DNA of 25,673 bases, from positions 1 through 25,673 of the forward strand of contig JBDRPD010000036.1 of the NCBI GenBank assembly GCA_043827405.1, given 5' to 3'. Positions 630 through 19,854 of the stretch are shown here, one piece after another. The notes below the pieces were generated by a model. That model ran no database searches. It had not been told where the DNA came from and was given only the letters and a program-made list of their open reading frames with translations. The translations under genes were made by a program, and so were the position numbers. The stretch is from Elusimicrobiota bacterium. Its GTDB lineage: Bacteria > Elusimicrobiota > Elusimicrobia > UBA1565. Every line of letters begins with the position of its first letter. The stretch's first letter is position 1.

Positions 630-2383
630 TAGATCGGCTTGCCGGGAGAGGTCTTGCCGCCCGCATAGTCGCGGACCTTGGAAGCGCGGTCGAGCATGCG
701 GCGCGCGTTGGCGTAGTCGCCGCGCCGCTTGTACTGCTCGGCCAGCAGGTGCCAGTGCCGGGGTTCGTCGGGCTCGAGGCGTACCAGCTGCAGCGCCGCT
801 CGATGCGACTGCTCATTCTTGCCCAGGTCGGTGGATACATCGACCAGCAGGCGGTAGGCCTCAGGATCATCCGTGCGGAACTTCACATATGCCAGCAGGC
901 TGCGCTCCGCCTCCGCCCCCCGGTGCAGCGCCGCCAGCGCCGCCGCCTTGCGGAAGTCCAGCCGCCGGTAATGCCGGGCTCGGCGTTCGAGCTGGTCGTA
1001 GCGGCGCAGCGCGTTTTCCCAGTCGCCCGCGCCGGCGGTGAGGTTGGCCGCCAGGTAGCGCGCATGCAGGCCGTTCGGGTGCCACAGCGATACGCCGTCG
1101 AAGCGCGCGACCGCGGCCGCGGTTTCGCCGCGCCCCGCGAGGTGAAGCGCCGTATTATGATTGCAGTCCCAGCCCATCAGGGTCAGTGCCGCGAGGCAGC
1201 CCAGGGCGGCAAGCGCACCGGCGGGCAGGTAAAGCAGCCGCCGCAGTCCCGGGGGCGCCGGGATCGGGATAACGTACACCTGCGCCGCGCCGCGCTCCAG
1301 GGCGAGCCCCGTCAGCGAGCCCGCCAGAAGCCACAGCAGCGCGCCAATTGCCGCCGAGTTCGCGGCCGCTCCGAGCAGCCCGGCCAGCAGAATCGCGAAC
1401 GCGCCGGCCCACTGTCCGGCGATGATGGCGGCGGCCCGGAGTTCGCCTTCGCGCGAGCGCCGCAGGTAGTCCTTGAGAGATGACGCGAAAACGGCAAGCA
1501 GCAGCACCGCACACAGCAGCGCGGGCCCCGTGCCGGAGGCCGGCAGCAGGGAGGGGCGCAGACGCAAAGACAGCAGTGCCGCAAAGCCGCCGCCGTAGGC
1601 GATCGTGCCCAGCGCCGCCGCGGGCACGGCCGCGGCGGCCAGCCAGCCGGCGGCGCGTCCTTCGCCGCCGAGGCGGGCGAGCGCGAAGAGGGAGAACAGC
1701 GCGGCGGCGACGGCGAAGACGGCGAGAGCCGTCCCCGAGCCGGAGAGAATGACGCCGGTGAAGGCCGCGGCCGCGGCCGCATGGGCGGCGAGGCGCTTCG
1801 CGCGCTGCGCCGTGGGGTTAACCGTTAGCGACAAGGCGAGAGGAAAAGCGGCGGCGGAGAAGACGCCCAGCAGTTCCGGCCGTGCCATGGTGGCGAAGGC
1901 TTGCCGGCCATAAGCTCCCTGCCAAAGGAGCGGGTCCAGGCCCGCCGCCTGCAGCACGGCGTAGAGCCCGGCGAGCCCGGCGGCGGCAGATGCCGCGGCG
2001 GAGAGTCCGGCGGCGAACGAGACCGAAGCCGGCCCGGTTGCGACGAGCAGGAAGAGGGTGACAAACAGCAGGAAGCGCATGAGCGGGAAGGCATAGAGCT
2101 CCGGCTGAGCGCTCAGGGCCCAGACGACGAGCAGCCAGCCGCACAGCGCTTTAGCCAGTACGGCGATCAAGGTGCGGTTGGCCGGCCATTCGACGCGTCC
2201 TGCTTCAATATGGCGCGCAACGGTGCAGAACCATATGACGCAGACGCCGGCGAGCAAAGTCGCTTCTTTAACGAGGTCCGTGTTGTAGGTCTTTAGATAG
2301 AAGGCGAGCGGCAGCACGAAGGCCAGGAGTTTTACTCCCGCGTTCGCGCCTTTTTCCCAGAATTCGGTAAGGCGTTCATTCAT
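626..2383 (-). CDS. O-antigen ligase (Wzy_C/WaaL)-like multi-pass membrane protein with C-terminal TPR repeats; appears degenerate
   Basis: About 12 hydrophobic segments, the motif YAVLQAAGLDPLLWQGAYG..FAT typical of WaaL-like proteins, and C-terminal TPR-type helices (ENALRRYDQLE, PDEPRHWHLLAEQY..GDYANARRML). ATGA overlap with the upstream gene. Confidence 0.65.
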   Translation of the reverse strand: MNERLTEFWEKGANAGVKLLAFVLPLAFYLKTYNTDLVKEATLLAGVCVIWFCTVARHIEAGRVEWPANRTLIAVLAKALCGWLLVVWALSAQPELYAFPLMRFLLFVTLFLLVATGPASVSFAAGLSAAASAAAGLAGLYAVLQAAGLDPLLWQGAYGRQAFATMARPELLGVFSAAAFPLALSLTVNPTAQRAKRLAAHAAAAAAFTGVILSGSGTALAVFAVAAALFSLFALARLGGEGRAAGWLAAAAVPAAALGTIAYGGGFAALLSLRLRPSLLPASGTGPALLCAVLLLAVFASSLKDYLRRSREGELRAAAIIAGQWAGAFAILLAGLLGAAANSAAIGALLWLLAGSLTGLALERGAAQVYVIPIPAPPGLRRLLYLPAGALAALGCLAALTLMGWDCNHNTALHLAGRGETAAAVARFDGVSLWHPNGLHARYLAANLTAGAGDWENALRRYDQLERRARHYRRLDFRKAAALAALHRGAEAERSLLAYVKFRTDDPEAYRLLVDVSTDLGKNEQSHRAALQLVRLEPDEPRHWHLLAEQYKRRGDYANARRMLDRASKVRDYAGGKTSPGKPIY

Positions 2384-2775
2384 CGCTGAGCCTCCAGTAC
2401 GCGGGCGGCTTCACCTGAGTGAGCCTGCGACGGCTGGCCGCCGGGAAGGGCATGGGCGGAAAGGAGCAGCGCACAGTAGACCAAAGAGCAGGCTTGAGCC
2501 GGCGACAAGCGAAGCGCCTCGCGCAGTTCCAGCGGCGCCTCCGCCGGTGCGCTTTCCTCGCGCAGTTTTTTCAGGATTGATTCGGTCAGTCCCGCCGGCA
2601 CTTCGATATTTATTTCGCCGGAGCGGACGACAGGCATGAGCGCTTCGTGTTCGGCGCGGCATTCCTCACATTCCTTGAGGTGTGTTTTGACGCGCCTGGC
2701 GGCGCCCGCCGTAAGGCGGTCATCTACATAGAGATCCAGAATATTGCGTACGCTCCAGCAGCGAAAGAAGCTCAT
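2380..2775 (-). CDS. Zinc-binding anti-sigma factor (zf-HC2/ZAS) with one TM helix
   Basis: N-terminal Cys, LDLYVDDRL and the HxxxCxxC motif (HLKECEEC), plus a hydrophobic segment near the C-terminus. Lies directly downstream of the ECF sigma with an ATGA overlap. Confidence 0.85.
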   Translation of the reverse strand: MSFFRCWSVRNILDLYVDDRLTAGAARRVKTHLKECEECRAEHEALMPVVRSGEINIEVPAGLTESILKKLREESAPAEAPLELREALRLSPAQACSLVYCALLLSAHALPGGQPSQAHSGEAARVLEAQR

Positions 2776-3308
2776 GGCTTTCTCCCTTTGATAAAAGACG
2801 CTAAATTTTTTCGCAGCAGCTTGCGGCCCCGGAAGACCCGGACGCCCAAAGTCGAGGCGGGGATTTCCAGAATTTTCGCGGCTTCATCGTAGGCATAGCC
2901 TTCCAGGTCGACCAAGGCAACGGCTACGCGCATCTCCGGCGGCAGAGTTTTCATCGCGTTGCGTACGGCCTCCTGTTGGTCCCGTCGTTCCATGGCGTCT
3001 TCCGGGGTTGGTCCGGGGTCCACCAAGGTTTCGGCGTAGGAGCGCCGCTCCTCCTCCGGGCCGCGTTCGAGCGGGTCCTCCTTGCGGCGCTTCTCCTGGC
3101 GCAGACGGTCGATGAACAGGTTGCGGATGATGCGATAGAGCCACTGCTCGACCTTGTAGGAAGGGTCGTAGGTGTGAAAGCTCTTGAGTACCCGCAGCAT
3201 CGCATTTTGCACCAAATCCCCGGCCGCTGCCTGATTTCCGGTGAGGTGAAAAGCCACCGAATAGGCGTACGGCGTGTAGCGTTCGACAATCTCTTTGGCC
3301 TGTTCCAC
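2772..3308 (-). CDS. ECF RNA polymerase sigma-70 family factor
   Basis: Region 2 (AYSVAFHLTGN..A.DLVQNAMLR..WLYRIIRNLFIDRLR) and region 4.2 (LPPEMRVAVALVDLEGYAYDEAAKILEIPASTLGVRVFRGR). GTG at 3308 is preferred to the track's TTG at 3395 because the extra 29 codons are not sigma-like. Confidence 0.9.
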   Translation of the reverse strand: MEQAKEIVERYTPYAYSVAFHLTGNQAAAGDLVQNAMLRVLKSFHTYDPSYKVEQWLYRIIRNLFIDRLRQEKRRKEDPLERGPEEERRSYAETLVDPGPTPEDAMERRDQQEAVRNAMKTLPPEMRVAVALVDLEGYAYDEAAKILEIPASTLGVRVFRGRKLLRKNLASFIKGRKP

Positions 3309-3345
3309 GTTGTTATGTGACCGTCGCAGACGCCTCTGGGTGCTA

Positions 3346-3372
3346 TACGAGCGGGGCCGCGCGGTTATTTCA
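3346..3372 (-). promoter_or_regulatory. Putative ECF-type (autoregulatory) promoter TGAAAT-N17-CGTA
   Basis: The minus strand reads ctTGAAATaaccgcgcggccccgctCGTAtag-like sequence about 38 nt upstream of GTG 3308, resembling the SigW-type TGAAAC-N16-CGTA consensus. Confidence 0.35.
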
Positions 3373-3521
3373 GCCAATTTTGCCTTCCCCAGCAAGCGGG
3401 GGTCCTAGGTCCCAGGTGATTAGGGGCCTTTTTATATGAGGAATTTTCCTGAAAGACCCATCCCATTCCGGGCATTTTGCAGTATTCTGGACTCCCAATG
3501 CGGAGACCCCTGGAGGCGCAG

Positions 3522-6500
3522 ATGCTTACGTATTTTCCTAATAGAGACACCCTTAAGAAGCTTCTATCCTGCGGTATCGCCGTGTCGCTGACGGCCTTAT
3601 CCCCCGGGATCGGTTCATATCAAGCCTGGGCGGCCAATATCGTCGCCGTACCCGCCAAGGTCGCGGCGCCCAATGTCCGCGTCGGGATGGTTCCGGGAAG
3701 CGTCTCCGCCAAGCCTCTTTCCCTGGACACCTCCGTCTCCGCCGGCATCGGGCTGAAATCCGCGCTGCCCAATGTGGGTTCCGTCGCCATGCAGTCCGGG
3801 ATTTCGGCGCCCTCAGTTAAGACCGCGCCCGTCATTTCGCCGGTGGCGAAGACCGTGCTCAAGCAGGCGGCCGCCGTCGGTTCAAATGCGGCCGGCCGCG
3901 CGGTTAGGGAAGTCGAACAAAAGACGCGGATGCAGAAAGGCGTGATCGGGCGGCTGACAAGCGCCGTCAAAGCGCTGCCCAAGATGCTCAGCCTGCAGGG
4001 CGGTTCGCTCAAGCAGGCCGCAGGCAATAATTTCGATAACGGCGCGGTGCGGCCCGCGCGCGGCAGCGTCCCGGCTTCTTGGAATTTCAAAGCCGCGCGC
4101 AACGGTCTCGGCGGAGGCGGCGACTTTAACGCTCCGCAGCCCGGGAAGGACGCGCAGGCGATGGCGCTGCTCAAGGAGCTGCGCAAGGGGCTTGAGCCCG
4201 GCGACCGTGTCGCGGCGAGCTACATCAAAGGGGCGGCGGCGCTCCTCGGCGTAGCGCAGGACGAGGTCATCCGCCGGCTGACGATCCTGACGAAGTACGG
4301 CTATTTCGCTTCGCTGCATAACGGGAACTTTATATATACCGACCTCGTTGATCGCGCGGAGGACGGAGATGACGAGAATGTTCGCGCCGCGCGCGTCATG
4401 GCGAAATACGGGACGCTGCTCCTCAACAGCCGGACGACGATCGACCACGTGCGGTCCTTCTTCCAGCTCAACGACGCCGCCCGCAAATTGGGCGACGACG
4501 CCTCGGGCAAGACGCCCCACGCCGACTACCGGCAGACCGCGATTCTCCGGGACAATGCCGGCCTGACCGTGCTGCGCGATATCCTCAAGCAGTACGACGG
4601 CGTGCTCGCGCAGGAGAAGGGGGCGGCTGCCGCCGCCAAGCGGCAAAAGATCGGACCGATCCTAGCTTACATGAGCGAGTCCTATTTCGATATCGCGAAC
4701 AATCCCGCGCCGCTTCCCGCGGCGCACGCCAAAACGCTCAGCGAGCTGGTCGAAGGCTTCGATAGGGAAGTCTTTTTCAGCGATAAGAACTATAAGCAGA
4801 TAAACGCGGCCTTGATGCTGCTGCCGAAGTTTATCGCGCAGCTCCAGGCCGGAGCGCGCAGCGACATCGCTCCCCAGAGCGAGAGCACGGCGCTGGTGCC
4901 GTCGGACCAGACCGTCGGGCGCCTGCCTGAAGAGACGCGCGAAGGCTTCGCCAAGGAGCTCCGGCAGGGGTTCCAGCCCGGCGAGGAGGTCTCGGCGGAG
5001 ATGCTCGGCCTTATCGGCGAGTCGCTGCAGCTCGGCCCCAAGGAGCTGGCCATCGCCAAGATGGAGATGACCTACTTCGGTCACTTGGCCCGGACCGGCA
5101 ATGGCCGCTATATCCATGTCGCGCTTGATAAGTCCGCAGGCTCGGACAAGGAGCTCAACGACGCCTCAATGAAGGCGCGCACCGGCTACCGGCTCATGAG
5201 CGAGGGCAAGCTGGAAAGCAGTGCCGAGGCCCTGCGCATGCTGAGCGAGGCGCATAATACCTTCCAGGAGCGCATGGCTCAGGGCAAGGACAGCGCCAAC
5301 CGCCTGCAGACCGAGGTCCTGCGCGACAACGCCGCCATGGACCTGTTGCGCGGGCTGCTGCAGGACGCCAAGACGCCGTCCGACGGCGCCATACTCAAGA
5401 CGCTCGAGACCGCCTTGTATTCCGTCGACTCTAAGCAGGGCGCGCGCGTGGCGGCGGAGTCGCCGCTCAGCCCGGGGCAGTGGAGCTCTCTCCAGCCCGT
5501 TATCAGCCGGCTGGCCGCCCGCAAGGATCTCGCCCACCTCCGCCCGGGAATCCAGGTGCTGGCGAAATTCGCGGCTGACCGCGATATCCCCGCAGCGCCG
5601 GCGGCGGCGCCCGGTCCGAGCGAGGCCGCCAAGAGCTTCCCGGTCATCGCGGATACCGACAAGTCCTACGCGAACCTCAACAAGTACGGGATCAATATCA
5701 CCGGCAAGGCGGCGCGCGGCGAGTATCATCCGCTGATCGGCCGGCGCAAAGAGATCCGGCAGATGCTCAAGACCCTGCTCCGGGTGGAGAAGAACAACCC
5801 GGTGGTTATCGGCGAGAAGGGCGTCGGCAAGACCAAGGTGGTGGAGGGGCTGGCGCAGATGATCGTTGACGGCGACATCCCGCAGCTCAAAGACATCAAT
5901 ATTTTCAAGCTCGACGTGACGGCGCTCGTCGCCGGCACCAAGTACCGCGGCGAGTTCGAGGAGCGCCTAAAAGGCGTGATCGACGAGGCCAAAAAGGGCA
6001 AGGGCAAGGTCCTGCTCTTCATTGATGAGATCCACTCCATCATCGGCCTGGGTTCGGCCTCGGGCTCGACCGACGCCTCACAGATGCTGAAGGAAGCCTT
6101 GAGCTCCGGCGAGCTGAGCCTGATCGGGGCGACGACGCTCGACGAATACCGCAAGATCGAAAAAGACGCGGCGCTGGAGCGGCGCTTTAATCCCATCACG
6201 CTCAAGAGCCCGACGCCCGATGAGGCGGTCGAGATTTTGCAGGGCGTGAAATACCGCTACGAGAACAAGCATGGCGTGACCATCCCGCTGGCGACGGTCA
6301 AGGCGGCGGTGGCGCTGGCCGTGCGCTACATCAAGGCCCGGTCTCTTCCGGACTCGGCCCTCGATCTTATCGACGATGCGGCGGCCGAGGTCAGCCTGCG
6401 TGCGGTCGAGGCGGAAGCCCAGGGGGAGGAGCCGCTTCTCGTCGTTACCGAGAACGACATCGCCACCGAGATCAATATTCGCACCGGCATCCCGGCGCAG

Positions 6501-9500
6501 GACCTCTCCCAGGACGACATGGAGAATCTGAAGAAGCTTCCGGGCGAGCTCGCCAGCCGCGTGATCGGCCAGCATGCGGCGGTCGACGCCGTCGCCAGCG
6601 CCATCCGGCGTTCGCGCCTCGGCTATGCCGAGGAGAAGCAGCCGATCGGCACCTTCGTGTTCCTCGGGCCGACGGGCGTGGGCAAGACCGAGTTCGTGCG
6701 GGTGCTGGCCAAGAACCAGTTCGGCGCGGAGCGCAATATCGTCCGCATCGATATGTCGGAATATCAGGAGAAGCATTCGGTTTCGCGTCTGATCAGCGCC
6801 CCTCCCGGCTACGTCGGCTTTGAGCAGGGCGGCCAGCTGACCGAGCCGGTGCGGCGCAACCCGCATACCGTGGTGCTCTTCGATGAGATAGAGAAGGCCG
6901 CGCCGGAAGTGCTCGACGTTCTGCTGCAGGTGATCGAGGACGGCCGCCTGACCGACGGCGCGGGCCGCACGGTGGACTTCTCCAATACCATTATCGTTAT
7001 GACGTCGAATATCGGCGGCAGCCTGGGCGTCGTTGAGAAGAAGCGCCGCATCGGCTTCGTCTGGGAAGAGGACGAGCAGCCGCAGCCCCAGCGGGAGGCG
7101 GACGAGCGCCGCGACGGCTACTTCGCCGCCTTCAAGGCGCGGGTCAAGCCGGAGTTCTACAACCGGATCGGCAAGCGCCGCGTCATCGTCTTCAATAACC
7201 TGTACCGCGAGCAGCTCGACAAAATCCTGGATCTGCGCCTCGGCGATCTCAACGCGCGTCTGGCGTCCAAAGCGATGACGGTTGAGCTGACCAAGACGGC
7301 GCGCAAGTATATCCTCGACGACGCGACCAGCGCCGAGAACAAGGCCTACGGCGCGCGGCCGCTCAAGCAGGTGATCGAGCATGAGGTTATGGATGCCCTC
7401 GTCGACGCTGAGCTCGACGGCCGCATCTCGCGGGGAGATAAGGTCAGCATTAGCGTCAAGGACGGCCGGCTGGCCGTTTCGCGCCAGGGACGGACGCCGG
7501 CCGACATGAAGGGTTATATGCTGGGCGGCCTCGCGGCGGTCTCCGCTCTGGCGCTTCCCGGCTGGTTGTTTCCGGCGGTGGGTCTAGCGGCGGTGCTGAT
7601 CGCGGCGGGGCTTTATGCGCGGGCGAAGTCCGGGGCTCTGCGGGGCCCGCCGGCCGCCAACGACGGCCTGCTGGGGCCGGGTTATCGCCTGCACAAGAAA
7701 GCGCTCTCGGCGGTCATGATGCTCTCGGTGGCCTTCCCCTTCCTGCATATTCCGCAGCCGAGCGCGCCGCGCATGTCGCCCGAGAACCGGCACGCGCTCG
7801 TTGAGCGCTACAAGGCCAAGAAGCCCAAGCTGCTGCTGATGGACTGGGACAATACCTTTATGGCCAACCGTAATACGCTCAATGATGAAGCGCAGCAGGA
7901 GCATTACGAGCTGCTGCGGGCGCTGCGTGAGGAGGGCATCCGCATCGGCTTCGTCACCAACCGGCCGTTCCAGGGCAAGGGCTTCGGCTTGCAGGACTTG
8001 CTGATGCGCGGGATGGATAAGGCGACGGCGGCGAAGTTCCTGCTGGCCGTCGGCGGCGGCGCCGAAGTCTACCGCTATGGGGAGAACGGCGAGACGCCGG
8101 TCGCGCCCGCCATGAAGATGACCTTCATTGCGGATGCGGACCGGGCGGCCATGAAGGCCGCCATTCGCGAGACCGGAGCCGGTCTCGGTCTCGTCGCGGG
8201 TGATTTTCGCGATCAGAACGAAAAGAGCTACGAATACACCTATATCCTCGAGAACCACCGCGATCAGATCAAGCCGCTTTACGACGGGCTCATGCAGCGC
8301 ATGCGGACCGCCGGCCTCGCCGACAAGTATAAGTTCCAGCTCAAGATGCCGGTCAATCCCGAGCATCAGCCCTATATCCGCGTGCGCGTTCTGGGGGCGG
8401 TCAAGGAGAACGGCGTAAAGGGCATTCTCGCGCTTCTTAAAGAGGAAGGCGTCGAGATCGCGCCGGAAGAGGTGCTGTTCTTCGGCGACGAGTTTAATCC
8501 CGGCAATGACGACGTGTCGATGGCGCGCTCGCTGCCCGCGGCGACGGCGATCGCCGTCGGCCAGGATGCCGACCCGCGGGTACGCAATGCCTATCTGACG
8601 CCCGGCATCGGACCGGTCTCCACTTTGGCCTTCCTGTGGGATATGCTGGGCCGCAAGCCCGCAGCGGGCGCACAGGGCTACTACCAGTCCATGGGACGGC
8701 CGTATCTGGGCCGGGAAGCCTGGCTGTCGGCGCGCTATAAGCCGATCCTGCAGGCCGGCATTTTCGCCGGCTTCGCGCTGGGCGTGATGGGCTTTGTTCT
8801 CCTTTATAAAGCGACCGGAGGCCTCGCCGTGCTGCTTCTGCCGCTGGTGACCATGGCCGGAACCTTTATTGGGGACCGGATGGCGCGGGGTTCGATTGAG
8901 CAGGTGCGCCGCGAGTATGAGGCGCTGCTGCGCGCCAAGCCGGGGGTGACCGGGGTCGGCATAACGACCAAGGATGGGCGCAGGCTGATCGCGGTCTACT
9001 ATGCATCCGAAGCGTCGAAAGTCGAGAACTCGACCGAGATCCCGGAGATGATTAACGGCTACGACGTTGTCGCCGAGGTCAAGGAGTCGGCGACGGCGAT
9101 GCGCGAGGTGCGCATACCGGGCGTCGATGCCATGGGCTTGGTATCGATGTTCGGCCTGGGGATGGCGAAGTTCACGGCTAGGGCCGCCGACGTGACGCTG
9201 CAAAGCGGCGAGGCCAAGCCCGCCGAGGGCGATCTGAGCTATACCGATGTTCTGTTTTTTCAGGAGACGCTGAAGATCACCCGGCGCTTCCTCGATCAAT
9301 TCGTCAAGCAGAACACCGGCTGGTGGTCGCGGGTTTCCGGCAAGCAGCGCCTGGTCGAGCTGGCACGGCAGGCTTTTCTCCAGGAGTTCGAGCAGGGCCG
9401 CAAGCCCGCCTTCAATATTACTTCGAAGGTCGACGGCGAGAAGCGCGTCATGCTGGGGCCCAACGGTGAGTCGATCGCCGAACTCCTGTGGCAGCAGCTC

Positions 9501-10172
9501 AAGCAGCAGACCAGTCTGAATGAAGAGAAGCTGCAGCGCTACCTTAAGATCGCCCGCCGCGTGCACGGCGAACGTACGGCGAATCTGCACGTCCTGCATG
9601 ACGCCGGCGGTTTGCCGGCTTTCGGCGAGCAGCTCGCGGGCGGGCTCGTGAGCCGTCTGCTGAGCGTCTATCCGATTGTGCCGGCAGCCAGCTTCGGCGG
9701 GAAGCCGTACCTCGGCAAGAAGGCCTGGCTCTCGGCACGCTACAAGCCGATTTTGCAGGCCGGCATCTTCGCCGGCTTCGCGCTCGGTTTGCTGGGCTTC
9801 GGCGCCCTGCACGCGATGACCGGAGGACTGTCGCTTCTCCTGGTGCCGCTGCTCACGGTCGCGGGAACCTTGATCGGCGACCGCATCGCCCGCGGTTCGA
9901 TCGACAAGGTCTACCGCGAATATGAGACCCTGCTGCGCCGCCAGCCCGGTGTACGCGCTGTCGGCACGACGACCCAGGATGGACGCAAAGTCATAGCGGT
10001 CTACTACGACAATGCAGCGTCCATTAAGGAATATGCTTCCAAACTGCCGGAAATGATCAACGGCTATGATGTCATCGCCCTGGTCGCCGGACAGCAGCGA
10101 GGAAACCCGACCTATCGCGAGCAGGCCGCCGGCGGACTGGCCTCGCGGCTGCGGCAGAATCTAGTCAAATAA
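3522..10172 (+). CDS. Giant multidomain protein: signal-like leader, low-complexity linker, 2x helical repeat domain, ClpA/ClpC-type AAA+ ATPase, TM segments, HAD-IIB hydrolase, 2x TM-hairpin module
   Basis: GGAGG at 3512-3516 precedes ATG 3522 (the track used TTG 3477). NBD1: [51 protein letters not shown]2: [47 protein letters not shown] motifs: [20 protein letters not shown]. Confidence 0.9.
8694..10079 (+). repeat. Intragenic duplication: 381-nt/127-aa module at 8694-9074 and 9699-10079
   Basis: The copies align without gaps, with about 87/127 identical residues by hand count, including the identical run [22 protein letters not shown]. Confidence 0.95.
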
Positions 10173-10204
10173 TTGAAGTTGAATAAATTTGCGTTGTTAA
10201 AATA

Positions 10205-10307
10205 AGCCTTTTCCGGTAAGGCTATTGGCCTATTCCCGTCTAGGCCAATTAATCGATGTTGGTTGGGTCCTACGCTGCATGTGGGACCTCATAAGTGCCG
10301 GTATAAT
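10205..10307 (+). promoter_or_regulatory. Intergenic regulatory region: three inverted repeats followed by a TATAAT box
   Basis: agcctt-N7-aaggct (10205-10223), attggccta-N8-taggccaat (10224-10249), ggtcctac-N7-gtgggacc (10266-10288), TATAAT at 10302-10307, and GGAGG at 10324-10328. Confidence 0.55.
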
Positions 10308-10336
10308 TTTTACATGACCGCCCGGAGGCGCCGTAT

Positions 10337-13300
10337 ATGATTAAAAAACAGATTAATTTTATGCTGAAAAAATCTATCGCTCTCGTTGTGGCCGCGGCCC
10401 TGGTCGCGACCGCTCCCGGCTTGGGGACTTACGAAGTCCTGGCCAATAATTTCGCCGCCGGCGCGGCTAAAGGCGTATCCGTGGTGCCGGGCGGCACTTC
10501 GGCCGCGGGGGTGGGCGGGATCAACAAGGCTGGCTTCTCCGGGCACAGCCTGAACTCATCGATCAATATGGATTTCAGCGGCGGTCTTCCTTCCGTCGAG
10601 TCGGTCATTCATACCGGCAGGGTGAATGCGGTCGCGGTTGGACAAAACGCGGTAATGCGGATGCCTACCGGCGGCGGCAATGAAGGCGAAGGCCTTGAAG
10701 ACGGCCTCCTGAAGCACAAGCAGCCCGGCACTCCCGCGGCGATGATAAAAGGCCCGACCGGCGGCGGCAACCAGGGCGACAAGAAAGGCGGCGAGCAGAC
10801 GTCGCGGCCGACCAAGGGTATTCCCGCCTGGGTAAAACAGGGCAATCTCAATCTCAAAGGCGTCGACGTCGCGGAAATGTCGGCCGCGCAGGCGCGGTCT
10901 TTCGGCGCCCGCATGATGGATCAACTGCTCGGCCGCAAGACCGGGCGCTATGCCGAACTCAGCGCCGCTCCGGTCGCCGGCGTCATCGGAAACGTCAGGA
11001 GCCGGATGCCGGGCCTCAAGCCCGTCGCGCTGAGCCGCGCCTCCTCTTCCGATGCTGTTGCGACGGACGCCGTGCCCGCGGCGGAAATCGCCGCTAACGG
11101 CGGCAGCGCGCCCCAGGGCCGCGGCAGGATTTTTGGCTTCGTGAAGACGGTCGCCGTCATGGCGGCCGCCGCCGGCGCCGTTTTCGGCGTTCATGCGGCG
11201 GCAGCGGCGCTGCTGCCCGCGGTTTTCGGCACGGTTCCGATCGCGGCCGTCTGGGCCGTGAGCACGGGAGTGTTTATCCTCCCGGTGGCGCTCTACTCCC
11301 GCTACCGCCTGAGCCTGCGCGACTCGGCGCGGTTGGGCAAGGTCAAGATTTTCGCTGATCTGGCGATCGGCGCCTTCATTGGAGCGTCCGCCATCGCCGC
11401 GCCGGTGCTTTTCACCGGTGCGGTTATGCAGAGCATCGCGGTCTCGCTGCCGGCCGTCCTCGGCCTGACCTATGCCGCCACTGCGTCCAACCAGAATACG
11501 GACGGCATGGTCGGCGGCATCATCAATTCCATCCTGACCTGGATGTCGCTCAATCTCATCGCGCCGCTCTTCGGCACGGCCGTCGGGGCGCTGCCGATTA
11601 CCTTGGGTTCTGTTTTCGGCCTGATGGCGATTCCGGCCATGGTGACCTTCTCCTTCTTCCTCGGCCGCATCATACGCTCGGCTGAGAGCGGGCGGCAGTT
11701 TTCGGTGCCGGGCTCGCAGCAAAAGATCCGCTTCCCGTCCTATACCTGGGTCATGACGGGCGTCGTGTTCGCCCTGCTGACCGGCTATAACCCGGTATGG
11801 ACCAATGCGGCCTTCGGCGCCTGGATGCTCTTGGGCTCGAAGAAGTGGTTCAACTACGTCTACTTTGCGCTCCTGGGCTGGTCGGCGATAACCGGTTTCG
11901 CCGCGCCGGTGACCTTCCTGGCCATCGCTTTCCTGCCCGAGCGCGCGTCCATGTGGACGGAGAACCTGCTTGAGAAGCTGCTCCCGGAAGGCAAGGCGGC
12001 GCCTTCGACGGCCAAGGAGCAGACGATCGACCCGTACATGGACAAGCCGGAGAGCTGGCCGCGCTTCCGCTACTGGCTCAAGACCGGCATCGTCATGGCC
12101 TCGCTGGTGGGCGCGGGCGTGGTGCTGAGCGCCACGGTTTTCGGTTTCGGCAAGTTTTTCGTCAATCTGGGCATCGCCGGCGCCCTGTCTTTGGTCCCGC
12201 TCATTTTCAGCAAGTGGCTGATCAAGAAGACCATGCGCGCCGAGCCGATGAGCGAGGAGGATGATCCCGAGGTCTTCGGCATCATGCGGGAGCTCCGGGA
12301 GAAGATCAATGAGGAAAGGACCGCGAAAGGCAAGAAGCCCATCCCGATGCCGGAGATGGTCAACGTGCCGATGCAGGTGCCCAACGCTTTCGCTACCGGC
12401 TTTAGCCCGATGAGCGCCATGGTCGGCGTGACGTATGAGATGAAGGACATGACGCTCAACCCTCGCCGGGCCAAGGAGGGCCTGATACGACTGCTCTACA
12501 GCGTCGATCCGCAGAGCAAGTCCTACCGCGTATTCCGGCGTGCGATTCGCGGCTCGATTCCCGGGATCGCCGAGGATGCGGGACCGCAGGAAGTTATCCA
12601 GGCCCTGCAGGACGCCGAGGCTTCCCAGATCAAAGCGCTGGGCGTGCGGGCGCTGCGCGGCGTGATGGGCCATGAATTCAGTCATGTGATGCACCGCGAC
12701 ATGCTGTTGGGCGCGATCACCGGGGCGGTCGCTTCCGCGATTTCATTCGCTTCCTACGGCGTCCTGTGGGCCGCCGGTCATGCCGAGGCGATGCTGCAGG
12801 GCTTGTGGGATAAGATCACCGGCAAGAAGGCCAAGGCGGACCAGCGGGCGCGCAAGGGCAAGCCGCCGGTTCGGATGCCCGAAATGAGCGTCGATGCCCA
12901 GTCCGCACCCGAGGCGCAGCCGGGGCCGGTCAGGCCCGAGGTCGTGGATCCGGTCACGACGGCCGCCGGCGTCGGCATTCTTCTGGGCTTGGCGAAGATC
13001 TTCGCGGCACTGTGGGCGCCGATTATGGCCCGTGTTCTGCAGATGGCTTCTGGACGCACCCGCGAGGGGCATGCCGATGAGGCGGGCGCCGAGCTGACCG
13101 AGGACCCCGAATCGCTCGCGCTGGGGCTCGGCCTGCTGACCTCTTGGCGGCCGGCCAGCATGTTCACCTTCGAGCGGGCGCTGCTGCCGCGGCTCGCCGC
13201 GATGGCGAATGTCATGACGGTCAACCCGCTGCAGCAGCTGCGCGAAGCCGGCGCTCTGCCGGGCGCGACCCCAAAGAGCGTCAAGGGGATGCCGGTGACC

Positions 13301-15244
13301 CAGCAGGACGACTGGTTCTTCAACCTGTTCATTACCCATCCCGATACCACGCAGCGCATCGAGCGCCTTGACGCGATGGCGGAGGCGCTCGCCGCACAGC
13401 AAAAGTCCGACGCCGCGGCGGCCGATGAGAGCGGCGCTCCCTCTTCCCGTTCCGACGGCAGCCTGCGGGCGGCGTCCTCCCTGGGCGAATCGTCCAGCGT
13501 CGATCCCAACAGCACCGAAGCGCTGGCCAAGCCGGGACTGGATGTGCGCCTGATGCCGCTGGCGCAGGTGCTGCAGGATGAGATCACTTCGTCGCAGGAG
13601 AAGTTCAATAAGCTGGGCCACCTGCTGTGGACGCTCGACGAGCTGCTCAAGCGGGGCGGCGTGGTGCGCTACGCCTACACCTTCGATCCGGAGACCCAGG
13701 AGTCCCTCCCGGGCTTCTTCAACCCTTCCGAGAAGGCGCTTTATATCAATGACACGATCATGCGGGCGGAGCCGCGCCTGCAGGGTTCAATTTTGGCGGG
13801 GCTTCTGCAGCAGGCCTATGACCACCTCAATAGCCGGGCGGCGGGGACGCAGGAGTCCGCGGTCCGCCAGATTCTGGCCCGGGACTCTTTTCTGGACGGC
13901 GCGGATATGGCGGATATCGCCAAGTCGGTAGATATCGGCAATGTCGTTTCGGTGGAGCTCTTCGAGTCCGTGCTGCAGAACCGGCTGTGGGCCGCCTCCG
14001 GCATGTCGGCGCTGGAGCGGATTTTCGGCGAGAGCGTGAGCATCAATCATCTGATTCAGCGGGGCAAAGACCATGTCTCCCTGCTCAAGCGCGAGCTGCG
14101 CGATCTCGAGGACCAGATGCAGCTGTTCGAGGATGGACTGCGCAAGGACAAGGGCAATGAAGGCTATGACCGCCAGGTTCGGGTGCTGCGGGAAAAGATC
14201 GGGATCAAGAAGGGCAATATCCGCGTGGCCCAGACCCAGCTCAAAATGGCCGAGACCGAGCGCGGCGCCGCCGAGTCGCTGCTGACGCCGCTTTCCGTCG
14301 ATAAGGCCCATCGCGCACGATTCGATACCAATAAGCTCGGCGTTGTCGGCGTCAAAGCCCGGCCCAAGGTCGACCCCAAGCTGCAGACGGTTCTCAATAT
14401 CATCGGCGAGACCATTCGCACCAGCAAGGATCCGGCGATTCGCGGTCTCGCCTATATCGAGGAGACGGTCGAGAAGCTGCTGGAGTCGGGCGGCCATATC
14501 CAGTTCGCGGCCCCCGGCGACGGCGCGGCGGCCTATTTTTCGCCGGTGACCCTCGACGTGGTCATCGGGCGCGAGTTCGCGCAGACCCATCCGGCGCTGA
14601 TCGCCGCCCTCATGGTGCACGAATTGACCCATGCGGCGGACTACTTCGGCGTGCCGAGCCGAAAGGGCGAGCCCTGGCTGCAGCGGCCGCTGACGCGCGA
14701 GACCGAGCGCAACGCCTTTACCAACGAGGCGATCTTCATCGGCGCCTTCGATCCGGAGGAGGTCGCCTCCCGCCTCGACGTCAATAATCCGATGGAGCAT
14801 GCGGCTTACCAGCTCGTCTTCCATGCGCGGATGAAGTACGTCGAAGGCAAGACCAGTCTGGAGGCCATGATCTCCGACGCCTACCGCGACCTCTTCGGGG
14901 CGCATTTCAGCGGGCTGCAGACCGCCCAGCAGTTCAAGGCGGAGATCGCCAACAGCAAGCTGGCGAAGATCGTCGAAGCCTATGAGGACCTCCGGCAGCG
15001 CGCTGAGCTGACCCAGCGGGCGGTGGAGAACGGGCAGGAAACCCGGCGGGTGCAGCTGCTGCAGATGCTCAAGGCGCTCTCCCTCTACGAGGCCTATATC
15101 ACCGTTTACCAGCGGCAGATGGCGCAGATGGACCTCGAGGCGGCGGAGGCGGGTCCCGAGGAGTTTTCCGCCGATTCCCGGACCGCCGACCCGGCGCGCT
15201 GGTCCCTGTTCGGCCTGCGCCGCAAGGCTGATCGGGCGTCGTAA
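10337..15244 (+). CDS. Giant multidomain membrane metalloprotease: signal-like leader, linker, polytopic TM domain, HtpX/M48 peptidase, two tandem zincin-like + coiled-coil units
   Basis: GGAGG RBS. M48 motifs PNAFATG (NAF at 12383), GVMGHEFSH (HEFSH 12671-12685), R.RE..AD (13064) and THP....RI..L (13334). A second HExxH, HELTH (14618-14632), has a downstream E..A (ETERNAF). More than 10 hydrophobic helices lie in ~11130-12230. Confidence 0.9.
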   Translation: MIKKQINFMLKKSIALVVAAALVATAPGLGTYEVLANNFAAGAAKGVSVVPGGTSAAGVGGINKAGFSGHSLNSSINMDFSGGLPSVESVIHTGRVNAVAVGQNAVMRMPTGGGNEGEGLEDGLLKHKQPGTPAAMIKGPTGGGNQGDKKGGEQTSRPTKGIPAWVKQGNLNLKGVDVAEMSAAQARSFGARMMDQLLGRKTGRYAELSAAPVAGVIGNVRSRMPGLKPVALSRASSSDAVATDAVPAAEIAANGGSAPQGRGRIFGFVKTVAVMAAAAGAVFGVHAAAAALLPAVFGTVPIAAVWAVSTGVFILPVALYSRYRLSLRDSARLGKVKIFADLAIGAFIGASAIAAPVLFTGAVMQSIAVSLPAVLGLTYAATASNQNTDGMVGGIINSILTWMSLNLIAPLFGTAVGALPITLGSVFGLMAIPAMVTFSFFLGRIIRSAESGRQFSVPGSQQKIRFPSYTWVMTGVVFALLTGYNPVWTNAAFGAWMLLGSKKWFNYVYFALLGWSAITGFAAPVTFLAIAFLPERASMWTENLLEKLLPEGKAAPSTAKEQTIDPYMDKPESWPRFRYWLKTGIVMASLVGAGVVLSATVFGFGKFFVNLGIAGALSLVPLIFSKWLIKKTMRAEPMSEEDDPEVFGIMRELREKINEERTAKGKKPIPMPEMVNVPMQVPNAFATGFSPMSAMVGVTYEMKDMTLNPRRAKEGLIRLLYSVDPQSKSYRVFRRAIRGSIPGIAEDAGPQEVIQALQDAEASQIKALGVRALRGVMGHEFSHVMHRDMLLGAITGAVASAISFASYGVLWAAGHAEAMLQGLWDKITGKKAKADQRARKGKPPVRMPEMSVDAQSAPEAQPGPVRPEVVDPVTTAAGVGILLGLAKIFAALWAPIMARVLQMASGRTREGHADEAGAELTEDPESLALGLGLLTSWRPASMFTFERALLPRLAAMANVMTVNPLQQLREAGALPGATPKSVKGMPVTQQDDWFFNLFITHPDTTQRIERLDAMAEALAAQQKSDAAAADESGAPSSRSDGSLRAASSLGESSSVDPNSTEALAKPGLDVRLMPLAQVLQDEITSSQEKFNKLGHLLWTLDELLKRGGVVRYAYTFDPETQESLPGFFNPSEKALYINDTIMRAEPRLQGSILAGLLQQAYDHLNSRAAGTQESAVRQILARDSFLDGADMADIAKSVDIGNVVSVELFESVLQNRLWAASGMSALERIFGESVSINHLIQRGKDHVSLLKRELRDLEDQMQLFEDGLRKDKGNEGYDRQVRVLREKIGIKKGNIRVAQTQLKMAETERGAAESLLTPLSVDKAHRARFDTNKLGVVGVKARPKVDPKLQTVLNIIGETIRTSKDPAIRGLAYIEETVEKLLESGGHIQFAAPGDGAAAYFSPVTLDVVIGREFAQTHPALIAALMVHELTHAADYFGVPSRKGEPWLQRPLTRETERNAFTNEAIFIGAFDPEEVASRLDVNNPMEHAAYQLVFHARMKYVEGKTSLEAMISDAYRDLFGAHFSGLQTAQQFKAEIANSKLAKIVEAYEDLRQRAELTQRAVENGQETRRVQLLQMLKALSLYEAYITVYQRQMAQMDLEAAEAGPEEFSADSRTADPARWSLFGLRRKADRAS

Positions 15245-15304: not shown

Positions 15305-15673
15305 ATGAAAAAAGTGCTGGTTGTAGACGATGATGCCATGGTCGTAGAGTTTCTTATTGCCTGCCTGAAAAAGGAAGGCTATGAGACCCAGGAAGCCTAT
15401 GGCGGGGAGCAGGGCTATAAGCGGGCGGTATCATTCAAGCCTGATTTGATGGTTCTCGATTTGATGATGCCCGACATGCACGGCTTCGACGTTTGCCAGA
15501 CGGTCCGCAGCGATCGCTCGCTCAACGAGATGAAGGTCCTTATCTCCTCGGCGAAGGGGTATGAGGTCGACAAGAAGGCCGTCCAGCGCCTCGGCGCCAA
15601 TGGCTATATCAATAAGCCTTTCGGCGCGGAGGAGTTCATAAAAGAAGTTGAAGGCTTGATCGGCAAGCCATGA
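15305..15673 (+). CDS. Single-domain response regulator (receiver)
   Basis: KKVLVVDDD, PDLMVLDLMMPDMHG (phospho-Asp), SA and YINKPF; 122 aa. Confidence 0.95.
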   Translation: MKKVLVVDDDAMVVEFLIACLKKEGYETQEAYGGEQGYKRAVSFKPDLMVLDLMMPDMHGFDVCQTVRSDRSLNEMKVLISSAKGYEVDKKAVQRLGANGYINKPFGAEEFIKEVEGLIGKP

Positions 15674-16539
15674 GCGGCATTCGGGTTCACTTTTGGGGCA
15701 CGCGCGGTTCGATTCCTGTTCCCGGCAAGGGTACCGTGCGCTACGGAGGCAATACCTCCTGCGTCGAGATCAACGACGGCAAGAACCTGTTCATCTGCGA
15801 CTGCGGCACCGGCATCCGCGAACTGGGACGGCGCATCATGGCGGAGACCAAGGGCGCGCCGGTCGAGGTCGCCCTATTCGTCGGTCATACGCATTGGGAC
15901 CATATTCAGGGCTTCCCCTTCTTTATCCCCGCGTACCTGCCCAAGAATAGGGTCCATGTCTACAGCGTCAAGGCCGTAGGGGACACTTTTGAGAATATTC
16001 TTCGCGGCCAGATGGGCATGAACTACTTCCCGGTCGAGGTCGGGGATATGCAGGCGCAGATCGAGTTTAAGCATACCTCGGCGGAGTTCGAGGTCGGCGG
16101 CGTCAAAGTGCGTACGATGTATACCAATCATCCGGGCGTGAACGTCACGTTCCGCTTCGACTATCCTGGCGGCAAGTCGGTGGTTTATTTGACGGACCAT
16201 GAGAATCATCAGGCGTTCGGCGGGAAAAACGAGCTGATGGTGCGCCAGGACGATGCGATCGAGGAGTTCTGCCGCGGCGTCGACCTGCTGATCGCCGACT
16301 CCCAGTACAGCGACGCGGACTACAAGATGAAAAAGGGCTGGGGCCACAGCCGCTGGCGCGACGCGCTGAACCTGGGGATGGCGGCGGGCGCCAAGCGCCT
16401 CGCCCTGTTTCATCATGAGCCGGACCGCAACGACGACGAAATCGACAAGATAGTTCAGGAGTGCCGAGAGGTTGTTAAGGCCTCTGGGAGCAAGCTCGAT
16501 TGTTTCGCCGCATCTGAAAATGAGGAGGTCATTCTCTGA
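15670..16539 (+). CDS. MBL-fold metallohydrolase (RNase Z / class II cyclic nucleotide phosphodiesterase-like)
   Basis: FWGTRGSIP, YGGNTSC, DCGTG, HTHWDHIQG (HxHxDH), TDHE, WGHS and FHHEP. ATGA overlap with the receiver gene. Confidence 0.9.
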   Translation: MSGIRVHFWGTRGSIPVPGKGTVRYGGNTSCVEINDGKNLFICDCGTGIRELGRRIMAETKGAPVEVALFVGHTHWDHIQGFPFFIPAYLPKNRVHVYSVKAVGDTFENILRGQMGMNYFPVEVGDMQAQIEFKHTSAEFEVGGVKVRTMYTNHPGVNVTFRFDYPGGKSVVYLTDHENHQAFGGKNELMVRQDDAIEEFCRGVDLLIADSQYSDADYKMKKGWGHSRWRDALNLGMAAGAKRLALFHHEPDRNDDEIDKIVQECREVVKASGSKLDCFAASENEEVIL

Positions 16540-16540
16540 T

Positions 16541-17176
16541 ATGAAACTGCTGCTCAGTCTGTTTACGACATCCATCGGCAAGAAACAGTTCGTCGCCGCG
16601 ACGGGTCTGCTCTTGATCGGCTTCCTGCTCGGTCATTTGACGGGAAACCTCCTGATCCTGAAGAGCCCCGAGCTCTTCAATCAGTATGCGGATTTTCTGG
16701 TCCATCACCCGCTGATCATCCCCGCGGAGATCGGCCTGGTTGTGCTGTTTTCGGCACATATCGTAATGGGGCTCAAAATCAGTATTGAAAATTGGAACGC
16801 GCGTCCCGACGATTACGACTACAAAGTCGCGGAAGGCGGCCGCACGGTGGGCTCGGCGACCATGAAGTATTCGGGCCTGCTTACCTTTGTGTTCTTGTGC
16901 GTGCATCTCTCCACCTTCAAGTACTCGCATCCGGGCGCGACGCTCTACGATACTGTGGTTATTTACCTGAAAATGCCGCTTTACTGTGCGTTCTACTTAT
17001 TGGCGCTGACGTCGCTGGGTATCCATCTGAGCCACGGCATAAAGAGCGCCTTCCAGACTTTCGGCGTGAGCCATCCGAAGTACACGCCGGCGATCGGCGT
17101 CGCCGGTCTGCTGCTCGCGGTCGCGGTCACGGCGGGTTTTCTGCGGCTGGCGCTGCACGGGATTATAGGGGGCTGA
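16541..17176 (+). CDS. sdhC: Succinate dehydrogenase/fumarate reductase cytochrome b subunit (b558 family)
   Basis: SIGKK..A.TG..L..FL..HL.GN, five TM helices and four candidate heme-ligand His (HL, HI, HL, HLSHG..SAFQT). GAGGAGG RBS at 16522-16528 precedes ATG 16541. Confidence 0.92.
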   Translation: MKLLLSLFTTSIGKKQFVAATGLLLIGFLLGHLTGNLLILKSPELFNQYADFLVHHPLIIPAEIGLVVLFSAHIVMGLKISIENWNARPDDYDYKVAEGGRTVGSATMKYSGLLTFVFLCVHLSTFKYSHPGATLYDTVVIYLKMPLYCAFYLLALTSLGIHLSHGIKSAFQTFGVSHPKYTPAIGVAGLLLAVAVTAGFLRLALHGIIGG

Positions 17177-17179
17177 GCG

Positions 17180-19108: not shown

Positions 19109-19854
19109 ATCTGACGGTGAGGATATGGCGCCAAAGCGGTCCCGACGACGAGGGAGCTTTCGTCGATTATCCGGCGAAGGGCGTGTCGCCCGATATGTCC
19201 TTTCTCGAGATGCTCGATGTGGTCAACGAGGAACTTATGCGCGAGGGCAAAGAGCCGGTCGCCTTCGACCATGACTGCCGCGAAGGCATCTGCGGTATGT
19301 GCTCGCTGGTCATCAACGGCCGGACGCACGGCCAGGATAAGGGGGCGACCACCTGCCAGCTCCATATGCGGCATTTTAAGGACGGTGAGACTATTACGGT
19401 CGAGCCCTTCCGGGCGAAGGGCTTCCCGATCATCAAAGATCTCGTGGTCGATCGCGCGGCCTTTGAGCGCATCATGCAGGCGGGGGGCTTCGTTTCGATT
19501 CGCACCGGTTCGGCGGGCGAAGCCAACGCGATCCTCGTTAATAGAGAGAACGCCGAGCTCGCGATGGATGCGGCCGCCTGCGTCGGGTGCGGCGCCTGCG
19601 TCGCGGCTTGTCCCAACGCCTCGGCGATGCTGTTTGTGGCGGCCAAGGTCTCGCAGTACGCACTCCTGCCGCAGGGGCAGCCCGAGCGCACCGCGCGCGT
19701 GCTCAAAATGATGGCCCAGCACGACAAGGAAGGGTTCGGCAACTGCACCAATGAGTACGAGTGCGAGAACGCCTGCCCCAAGGCGATCAAGGTCTCCAAT
19801 ATCGCGCGCCTCAACCGCGAGTTCCTGCGCGCGAACATCGTCTCGGCCGAATAG
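19105..19854 (+). CDS. sdhB: Succinate dehydrogenase/fumarate reductase iron-sulfur subunit
   Basis: [11 protein letters not shown] (2Fe-2S), [12 protein letters not shown] and [16 protein letters not shown] overlap with sdhA. Confidence 0.97.

Follow-up and report, generated by a model that had tools for sequence, protein, structure and literature searches.

The window analyzed here is one entire contig of 25,673 nucleotides (C36; JBDRPD010000036.1) from the 4.33-Mb, 98% complete genome (G000; assembly GCA_043827405.1) of an uncultured Elusimicrobiota bacterium from groundwater, of the order UBA1565, and the subject of this work is a pair of adjacent, co-oriented and intact genes within it, separated by 164 bp: gene A, encoding a Clp/Hsp100 ATPase fusion, and gene B, encoding an HtpX/M48 protease fusion. 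Both products carry a signal-like leader, an Ala/Gly/Ser/Pro linker and stacked enzyme domains, which confirms what a sequence-only reading of this DNA had described. That reading had also offered the genes as a candidate novel two-gene system; a coupling of A and B is supported, but the pair is part of a genome-wide family of proteins tagged with the same leader, not an isolated system. We propose, at a probability of roughly 0.45, that A and B belong to a lineage-wide kit that is exported and delivered into another prokaryotic cell, either prey or host, and form its proteolysis module, with A unfolding and B cleaving membrane proteins. The kit would consist of spare cytoplasmic and inner-membrane proteins sharing one export tag; as a tagged system it falls outside the known kinds, the pair is its best-conserved proteolytic module, and the mechanism advanced for it is hypothetical.

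The leader was found at the head of at least 27 open reading frames (ORFs) of the genome using an iterated N-terminus profile (E < 1e-4), and of 33 at E < 0.01, one of them an ordinary secretin. A profile restricted to the leader core gave one match (E 0.1) in 2487 internal control segments, and about 19 further ORFs with looser leaders were chosen by composition and eye. By pattern analysis the leader fits the arrangement recognized by Sec and signal peptidase I (basic n-region, h-region, A-x-A site): of 54 aligned leader rows, 37 have Ala at -3 and 43 have it at -1, against 5-16 at flanking positions (4 rows were mis-anchored). From its sequence the leader looks like a cleaved Sec signal. 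An uncleaved hairpin was rejected, as the second helix is missing: the best 19-mer after the leader had a median dG of 8-9 and a minimum of 4.9, compared with a median of 2.0 and a 97.5th percentile of 6.3 for real helices.

The proteins bearing this leader include Clp, LonB, MoxR, ATP-grasp, PPK2, RNB, uridine kinase/cytidine deaminase, glycogen synthase, amylases and nucleases, together with membrane and protease types (MFS, ABC, SDF, MscS, M50, CAAX, M48, M3, S8, S41 and M28), and untagged copies exist for most of the tagged families tested. ATP or cytosolic substrates are required by the tagged Clp, Lon, MoxR, ATP-grasp, PPK2, RNB, uridine kinase, glycogen synthase and ABC/MFS transporters. 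ATP-dependent proteases and membrane proteins of 12-14 helices are not expected to exit the cytoplasm or inner membrane via Sec. The 38 mature tagged proteins (6 of which were added by eye) contain 0.38 cysteines per 1000 residues, 31 having none; the figure is 8.7 for 1191 other genes, 5.2 for 168 ordinary signal-peptide proteins and 11.7 for 387 cytoplasm-like proteins. In comparison, 100 homologs of B hold 81 cysteines in 128,513 residues. Cysteine exclusion is described as a trait of exported proteins (PMC2823432), and DsbA-family genes are present in the genome. Among other members of the family, contig C91 encodes a tagged 3386-aa BatA/VWA/TPR/DUF58 fusion (L015) immediately followed by a loosely tagged MoxR ATPase (L181), so that an entire MoxR-VWA system is tagged. 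Contigs C22 and C99 encode signal-bearing giants of 3000-5500 aa with nearly no Pfam match (L003, L024, L032 and L033), of which L003, L024 and L032 are cysteine-poor.

Charge distribution conflicts with these signs of export. Across 90 B homologs, the mean number of Lys+Arg in successive loops, with loop boundaries placed by eye from the predicted structure model, was 2.6, 0.0, 6.4, 0.06, 0.4, 0.02, 3.2, 0, 3.8, 0, 7.9, 0.04 and 4.1. Because Lys/Arg alternate loop by loop, the linker and catalytic domain of B are placed on the same 'in' side, and by this positive-inside pattern B fails the expectation for a signal-peptide protein that the mature N-terminus lies on the trans side. The first helix of tagged membrane proteins is richer in K/R before than after it in 21 of 29 cases, and A has no helix between linker and ATPase. 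Tagged helices are slightly less hydrophobic: the best-four helix dG was 1.42 in 20 tagged versus 0.48 in 249 other membrane proteins (p 5e-4), and in MFS-matched helices 5 tagged proteins were less hydrophobic than 13 untagged ones (p 9e-4; four rows, one with a stop, two short and one loosely tagged, were left out). The same trend of lowered helix hydrophobicity is described for type III/IV membrane effectors in PMC6110835. The A-x-A leader with no return helix, the loss of cysteine and the weaker helices thus say export, whereas cargo and charge bias say cytoplasm.

Were the leader not exported and the proteins to form a machine in the producer's own membrane, topology and cofactor needs would all be satisfied together; the ClpP genes of the same genome and the fusions of A relatives to three membrane-protease families (below) also speak for this reading. 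We nevertheless consider this unlikely, given the conserved A-x-A site with no return helix and a cysteine content 30-fold under that of cytoplasm-like and 14-fold under that of ordinary signal-peptide proteins; an anchor would moreover be redundant for 12-helix transporters, and untagged copies are already in place. A dedicated membrane-anchored machine was one of two options offered by the earlier reading, but membrane anchoring of the Clp is not conserved: of 13 A homologs, 2 have no transmembrane helix and 3 have helices only before the ATPase. The other option of that reading, effectors delivered into another cell, fits better, the delivery step itself being deduced.

A reading with two membrane crossings was preferred, being the simplest that honors both the export signs and the cytoplasm-type topology. 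Sec export and signal peptidase I cleavage, predicted from the leader pattern, would be followed by unfolded passage of the oxidizing periplasm, for which the lack of cysteine, the long, floppy linker and the low hydrophobicity of the helices, all seen in the composition, may be of aid. Transfer into the target cytoplasm would then occur via a putative channel, most plausibly type IV pilus or type II-like. B would insert from the cytoplasm into the target's membrane, with the zinc site on the cytoplasmic face as the charge bias predicts, and A, judging by its intact motifs, would hexamerize, burn target ATP and unfold or extract proteins for B or, via its IGF loop, for ClpP. The two would together act as a split FtsH that turns target proteins into peptides, alongside the tagged transporters. 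On a wider and somewhat more tentative view, this Elusimicrobiota order may possess an undescribed Sec-initiated pathway by which cysteine-free duplicate machinery (Clp/Lon ATPases, HtpX and other intramembrane proteases, SecA, RNase, glycogen enzymes and MFS/ABC transporters) is installed in another cell to digest that cell from inside and export what results, with A and B as a split FtsH-like membrane-protein digester.

Secretion-related gene content was surveyed in the same genome, which encodes 17 strong PilB/PilT-type ATPases (22 matches in all), 3 secretins and 15 pilin-type genes, together with two untagged TLC (ATP/ADP translocase)-like transporters (C39:18535-19803 and C50:211902-213089) that have no counterpart in 14 control genomes. 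PMC10066038 names pili and ATP/ADP translocases among the traits of symbiosis or predation in Omnitrophota. A second SecA with a signal-like N-terminus, a P/A/S-rich linker and 0-1 Cys is encoded in three relatives, G180, G341 and G410 (L221:1181-4531:-, L222:2236-5565:+ and L225:885-5144:-), and was not found in G000; it has a parallel in the SecA-like domains of the Omnitrophota giants. These genes bear on a further explanation, in which the tag moves a duplicate toolkit across the inner membrane into a second, ATP-containing compartment of the producer (an energized periplasm, a vesicle or an organelle). There, B and the transporters would go into the far membrane from its inner face, and A would run on ATP supplied to that compartment. 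The cleavable leader, the cysteine loss and the 'in'-side topology would all be covered with no second translocation; tagged PPK2 and the TLC-like carriers could supply the ATP, and tagged glycogen synthase, the signal-bearing SecA of the relatives and a signal-bearing ClpP-like protein of G000 fit as well. Secretins and DsbA-family genes point instead to an ordinary outer membrane and an oxidizing periplasm, the single YidC per genome, matched in 16 of 17 family genomes, leaves no second insertase, the signal-bearing ClpP-like gene does not track A, and both housekeeping ClpPs are untagged; we regard such a compartment as doubtful.

The core of B was detected in 72 of 101 genomes of the order, and matches outside the order were confined to the HtpX or zincin-like part except in G216 and G304. 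The region upstream of B was readable in 17 genomes of families f1 and f2 (own genome included; 3 further contigs were too short), and an A-type gene lies upstream in 11 of these: it is immediately adjacent in 8 genomes and fused to B in 1, and in 2 it is set off by 1.1 or 2.7 kb containing small genes. In the fused case, G090, A and B form a single 2405-aa ORF that has lost the IGF loop. The adjacency in 11 of 17 genomes and this natural fusion argue for functional coupling of A and B. B is the fixed gene of the f1 locus, and what stands upstream of it, A or other tagged genes, varies between genomes; in f3 genomes B is mostly neighbored by other tagged genes and often fused to MFS. The architecture, which the earlier reading had proposed to check in homologs, is conserved; adjacency recurs in f1 and f2 but not in the f3 genomes inspected. 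In G232 a tagged Clp immediately precedes a tagged Lon, and in other relatives of A the ATPase is followed by an Rce1-like (CAAX-type) domain (G180 and G410) or by a Peptidase_A8-like (signal-peptidase-II-like) domain (G408, G402, G412, G403, G341 and G314, the last under cut-off). An unfoldase beside a membrane protease is the constant theme, with interchangeable partners: one Clp clade has repeatedly become fused to membrane proteases of three unrelated families, which amounts to a natural experiment in how FtsH-like function can be rebuilt.

Several observations weigh against delivery into another cell. Some tagged cargoes (S8, S41, M28, Endonuclease I and PLD) are ordinary exported enzymes. 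Housekeeping ClpC cores are also cysteine-poor (21 in 13,327 residues; 6 of 20 with none), and because ClpC shares this trait, the A core alone is weak evidence and the family-wide cysteine figure carries the weight. The first-helix charge bias is opposite in 8 of 29 tagged membrane proteins, and the shift in hydrophobicity is slight, with no significant difference when only the best MFS helix is compared (p 0.17). A is not at the B locus in 6 of the 17 f1 and f2 genomes and lies elsewhere than B in all 5 f3 genomes inspected (adjacency 0/5); homologs are kin, and such counts are not independent. Neither the type VI secretion system sheath (VipB) nor FlhB/YscU was found in the 98% complete genome, in a search aimed at type VI and type III markers. 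No route combining Sec with a pilus is known to pass a 14-helix protein through the producer's own SecYEG, and the target cell, the predatory lifestyle and the delivery channel are all putative. The tagged proteins might alternatively be surface or periplasmic scavenging enzymes exported in the normal way, the ATPase living on ATP from lysed cells or degenerating. The signal peptide, the cysteine loss and the several normal secreted hydrolases among the cargo agree with this, and comparable extracellular readings exist for Omnitrophota giant proteins; with Walker A1 retained in 42 of 42 and Walker A2 in 41 of 42 A-homolog rows, and a charge bias in B that contradicts normal insertion following signal cleavage, we give it only a slim chance. 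Every surviving explanation implies something undescribed: proteins would reach other cells by a new delivery route, or the cell would have a second compartment containing ATP, or a tag that looks like a signal would not be exported. If delivery is true, it would be a predatory or parasitic mechanism for a little-known phylum.

Table 1. Features of the gene pair, in window coordinates.
Feature	Positions	Strand	Remark
AT-flanked GGNCC sites between divergent ECF sigma gene and A; candidate shared regulatory motif	3400..3430		motif picked after seeing the data
Gene A, leader-tagged Clp/Hsp100 ATPase fusion, 2216 aa, cysteine-free past leader	3522..10172	+	
A leader, aa 1-37: basic n-region, hydrophobic h-region, PG-x-x-x-Y-x-A-x-A	3522..3632	+	predicted signal peptidase I site after A37
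A linker, low-complexity, net-basic, no hidden transmembrane helix	3633..4145	+	
A, two copies (aa 210-445, 470-691) of a 236-aa winged-helix + helical-bundle domain in place of Clp_N	4149..5594	+	
A, Clp D1+D2+D2-small, no middle domain	5655..7469	+	
A, hydrophobic helix or hairpin immediately past ATPase	7518..7616	+	
A, HAD-IIB-like phosphatase domain, DWDNT 1441, GDEF 1655	7761..8654	+	accessory
A, transmembrane hairpin + small domain, twice (about aa 1725-1855, 2060-2190), flanking uncharacterized domain 1905-2015	8694..10091	+	no Pfam family
Gene B, leader-tagged HtpX/M48 membrane protease fusion, 1635 aa, no cysteine	10337..15244	+	
B leader, aa 1-36	10337..10444	+	cleavage predicted after A36
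B linker, low-complexity	10445..11128	+	
B, conserved bundle of about 10 transmembrane helices, no known family	11129..11980	+	N-terminus on basic (cytoplasm-type) side
B, HtpX/M48 zinc protease, HEFSH 779-783, third ligand E910, THP 1000	12071..13396	+	
B, two zincin-like repeats, second with HELTH 1428-1432, first degenerate	13523..15136	+	accessory; zincin label from HExxH motif

Gene A had been called a Clp unfoldase fusion. Its D1 and D2 modules are present by Pfam (AAA, AAA_lid_9, AAA_2 and ClpB_D2-small), with Walker A at 764/1049, Walker B at 832/1119, pore loops KYRG at 807 and GYVG at 1096, and an IGF loop at 1177-1179, but Clp_N and the middle domain are missing: PF02861 gave no match in A and matched the housekeeping ClpC of the same genome at E 2.5e-38, and the Walker A spacing of 275-299 in A-type cores (about 285), versus 338 in ClpC, leaves no middle (coiled-coil/UVR) domain. 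An IGF-type loop was kept in 34 of 37 A-homolog rows by pattern match (one row mis-anchored, one duplicate) and was absent from G090, G412 and G192. The closest solved-sequence matches of the core are ClpB and ClpC, A scores below every Clp equivalog cut-off, and against the ClpV/TssH model TIGR03345 it reaches 569 bits (cut-off 885). A-type cores form their own fast-evolving clade apart from 21 housekeeping ClpCs (FastTree support 100), in quick and FastTree trees that did not include ClpA/ClpB of other phyla. A second long-branched Clp clade of G000, in which the first ATPase module is divergent and the winged-helix domain is absent, comprises L004 (C50, tagged) and L034 (C43, truncated at the end of its contig). 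Residues 1-200 of A are 43-45% A/G/S/P. The HAD-IIB assignment of residues 1437-1667 rests on TIGR01484 at E 7e-6, below the model cut-off; this domain and the remaining C-terminal part are accessory, and domain 1905-2015 also occurs in G180, G410 and in the B of G316.

The N-terminal domain of A was modeled as a winged helix plus helical part with pLDDT 95, the winged-helix part aligning to a GntR winged helix-turn-helix with Z 9.7 and an rmsd of 2.9 over 70 residues. Foldseek at E 0.001 gave zero matches for this model and for the B model, the ESM Atlas held no usable match for the domain, and the wide structure search took in the winged helix only. Fourteen relatives were found among 1.84 billion representatives (8 Clp, 2 Lon and 4 with no Pfam match). 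The domain is present in 17 of 301 phylum genomes, all of this order (17 of the 32 searched in the order, 0 of 269 outside), where it stands ahead of tagged Clp, ahead of tagged Lon or in stand-alone signal-bearing proteins. Examples ahead of tagged Lon proteases and, in G300, in stand-alone signal-bearing proteins that have no ATPase are L148:4918-7974:-, L149:5741-9349:-, L144:10551-12725:+, L145:4498-5943:+ and L146:4071-6134:-. No description of the leader, the A N-domain or the pair was found in the literature searched, most subscription papers and preprint supplements lying outside its scope and the latter being able to list such proteins.

Ste24-type proteases are known to clear jammed cargo, and A could conceivably serve as the motor of an export route that threads tagged cargo through a pore, with B clearing jams. 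Its pore loops and ATPase motifs are intact, its helices follow the exit face, the fold of the B model is closest to ZMPSTE24/Ste24, and HSP101 in the Plasmodium PTEX offers a precedent (PMC7355975). The C-terminal membrane modules of A vary between homologs, and no pore gene was identified. Retention of the IGF-type loop, the same N-domain on Lon proteases, the presence of that domain in just 17 of 32 searched genomes while B is in 72 of 101, and the interchangeability of the C-terminal membrane modules make such a motor very unlikely.

Gene B had been read as an HtpX/zincin fusion, and the M48 and zincin-like parts both stand, the zincin tail being accessory. Peptidase_M48 matched at E 7e-14 (52.6 bits versus a cut-off of 20.3), the HtpX NCBIfam equivalog scored 124 bits against a cut-off of 412, and other HtpX models were likewise under cut-off; on these scores B is classed as an M48 peptidase and not as an HtpX equivalog. 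HExxH is kept in 99, the third Glu ligand in 100 and THP in 99 of 100 homologs. The model of B (pLDDT 77) has ZMPSTE24/Ste24 as its best fold match, a weak one (E 0.011, TMq 0.25). A/G/S/P amount to 38-51% of residues 1-300. The C-terminal repeats align mutually at E 1e-9, and the duplicated domain holds a single HExxH (1428); in the ESM Atlas the tail had matches only under 0.9, with a DUF6782 lead in 31% of one cluster. Pfam held no family for the 10-helix bundle, the zincin-like tail or the A C-terminal repeats. Homologs span 950-2400 aa with interchangeable C-terminal modules (zincin-like, MFS, cold shock), and B is fused to an MFS domain in many relatives.

A and B are additional copies beside housekeeping genes, a point the sequence-only reading had left for checking: the genome encodes an ordinary ClpC (Clp_N + UVR), two untagged ClpPs, two FtsH, an ordinary Lon and seven further M48 genes, which rules out A and B as its sole Clp and HtpX. 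Peptidase_M41 matched only the two FtsH genes, neither A nor B. Contig C10 encodes a 482-aa, cysteine-free, signal-peptide, coiled-coil and ClpP-like protein (L198:757-2205:-), found in 17 of 251 phylum genomes, mostly of f5. It was rejected as a dedicated partner of A, as its distribution is mismatched: the gene is present in 12 of 18 f5 genomes, where the A N-domain is present in 0 of 22, and it was not found in G090, G142 or G232.

Compared with ClpA/ClpC, A has two intact AAA+ modules, pore loops and an IGF loop, with the middle domain missing as in ClpA; it differs in its export-like leader, linker, winged-helix repeats for Clp_N, membrane and HAD modules and separate clade. From its motifs A would be expected to work like ClpA, and it fails membership on Clp_N. 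B shares HExxH, the third Glu, the THP motif, an N-terminal helix pair and the nearest fold with HtpX/Ste24-ZMPSTE24, and adds leader, linker, about 10 helices and interchangeable C-terminal modules, whereas the HtpX equivalog is a stand-alone protein of about 290 aa. FtsH is a membrane AAA+ / M41 protease, and A and B likewise combine an ATP-driven unfoldase with a membrane-bound zinc protease, in a single chain in G090; unlike FtsH they are built from unrelated parts (a Clp clade, and M48 rather than M41) and are not a single AAA-M41 fusion. Type III/IV transmembrane effectors resemble the tagged proteins in combining an export signal with less hydrophobic helices (PMC6110835), but their signals belong to the T3SS and T4SS, whereas A and B carry a Sec-type leader. 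No FlhB/YscU gene and no VipB being found, ClpV/type VI and type III readings were rejected. Plasmodium PTEX HSP101 is likewise a Clp/Hsp100 ATPase active outside the producer's cytosol, yet according to PMC7355975 it is ClpB-type with a middle domain, serves translocation and has no indicated ClpP partner, whereas in A the IGF loop is retained and proteases accompany the ATPase.

Of the phenomena described, the closest is that of the Omnitrophota giant proteins ('archaeovorins'), which combine a signal peptide and helices with cytoplasm-type enzymes (HAD, starch synthase, SecA-like, peptidases) and pose the same topology problem; Omnitrophota are a sister lineage, pilus-rich and linked to predation (10.1101/2023.11.21.568195, 10.64898/2026.06.07.730766 and PMC10066038). 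Archaeovorins reach at least 30,000 aa in Omnitrophota, whereas A and B have 2216 and 1635 aa, with named relatives in Elusimicrobiota, and many proteins of 0.4-5.5 k-aa share one leader here. The main text of 10.1101/2023.11.21.568195 mentions neither Clp nor HtpX, and that of 10.64898/2026.06.07.730766 does not mention Clp. The tagged proteins are small and expressible, and could be used to probe where the enzyme domains of the Omnitrophota giants act.

Assembly integrity was checked against two sequencing runs. In run X1, possibly the source, a single 9214-base contig at depth 19 covers 5939-15152, from the Clp domain to the end of B, and in run X2, from a different study, closely similar pieces of up to about 1 kb lie along both A and B, none listed crossing the A-B gap. 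The architectures of A and B recur across dozens of genomes, and the X1 contig together with this recurrence in independent genomes rules out a chimera, which the earlier reading had raised. That the contig is metagenome-derived and that the whole stretch is spanned by no listed record would suit misassembly or spurious ORFs, to which the read contigs and the recurring architectures leave a negligible chance. GGAGG precedes the ATG of each gene; the frame of A is open from 3477, ahead of its start at 3522. The B core as a query returned three loci, two titled Elusimicrobiota and the third only a 28-residue match, and the organism names given among 101 B-like proteins are all Elusimicrobia/Elusimicrobiota. 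The plasmid collection searched gave just a partial HtpX-like match. A complete genome of the order was derived from a non-axenic amoeba culture (PMC9476967).

AT-flanked GGNCC sites similar to those ahead of A also stand ahead of B, at about 10225-10292, and 21 of 25 tagged genes have such sites in the 150 bp upstream, versus 252 of 945 others, the pattern having been picked post hoc from four tried. These sites may mark a common regulon, with a possible link to the divergent ECF sigma/anti-sigma pair at 2380-3395. Promoter and terminator scans gave no signal exceeding chance. Downstream of B, positions 15305-19854 encode a response regulator, a metallo-beta-lactamase-fold gene and sdhCAB, an arrangement kept in most f1 genomes, and sdhB is followed at 19925-20782 by a low-GC ORF that, from its motif by eye, resembles a REP-associated tyrosine transposase.

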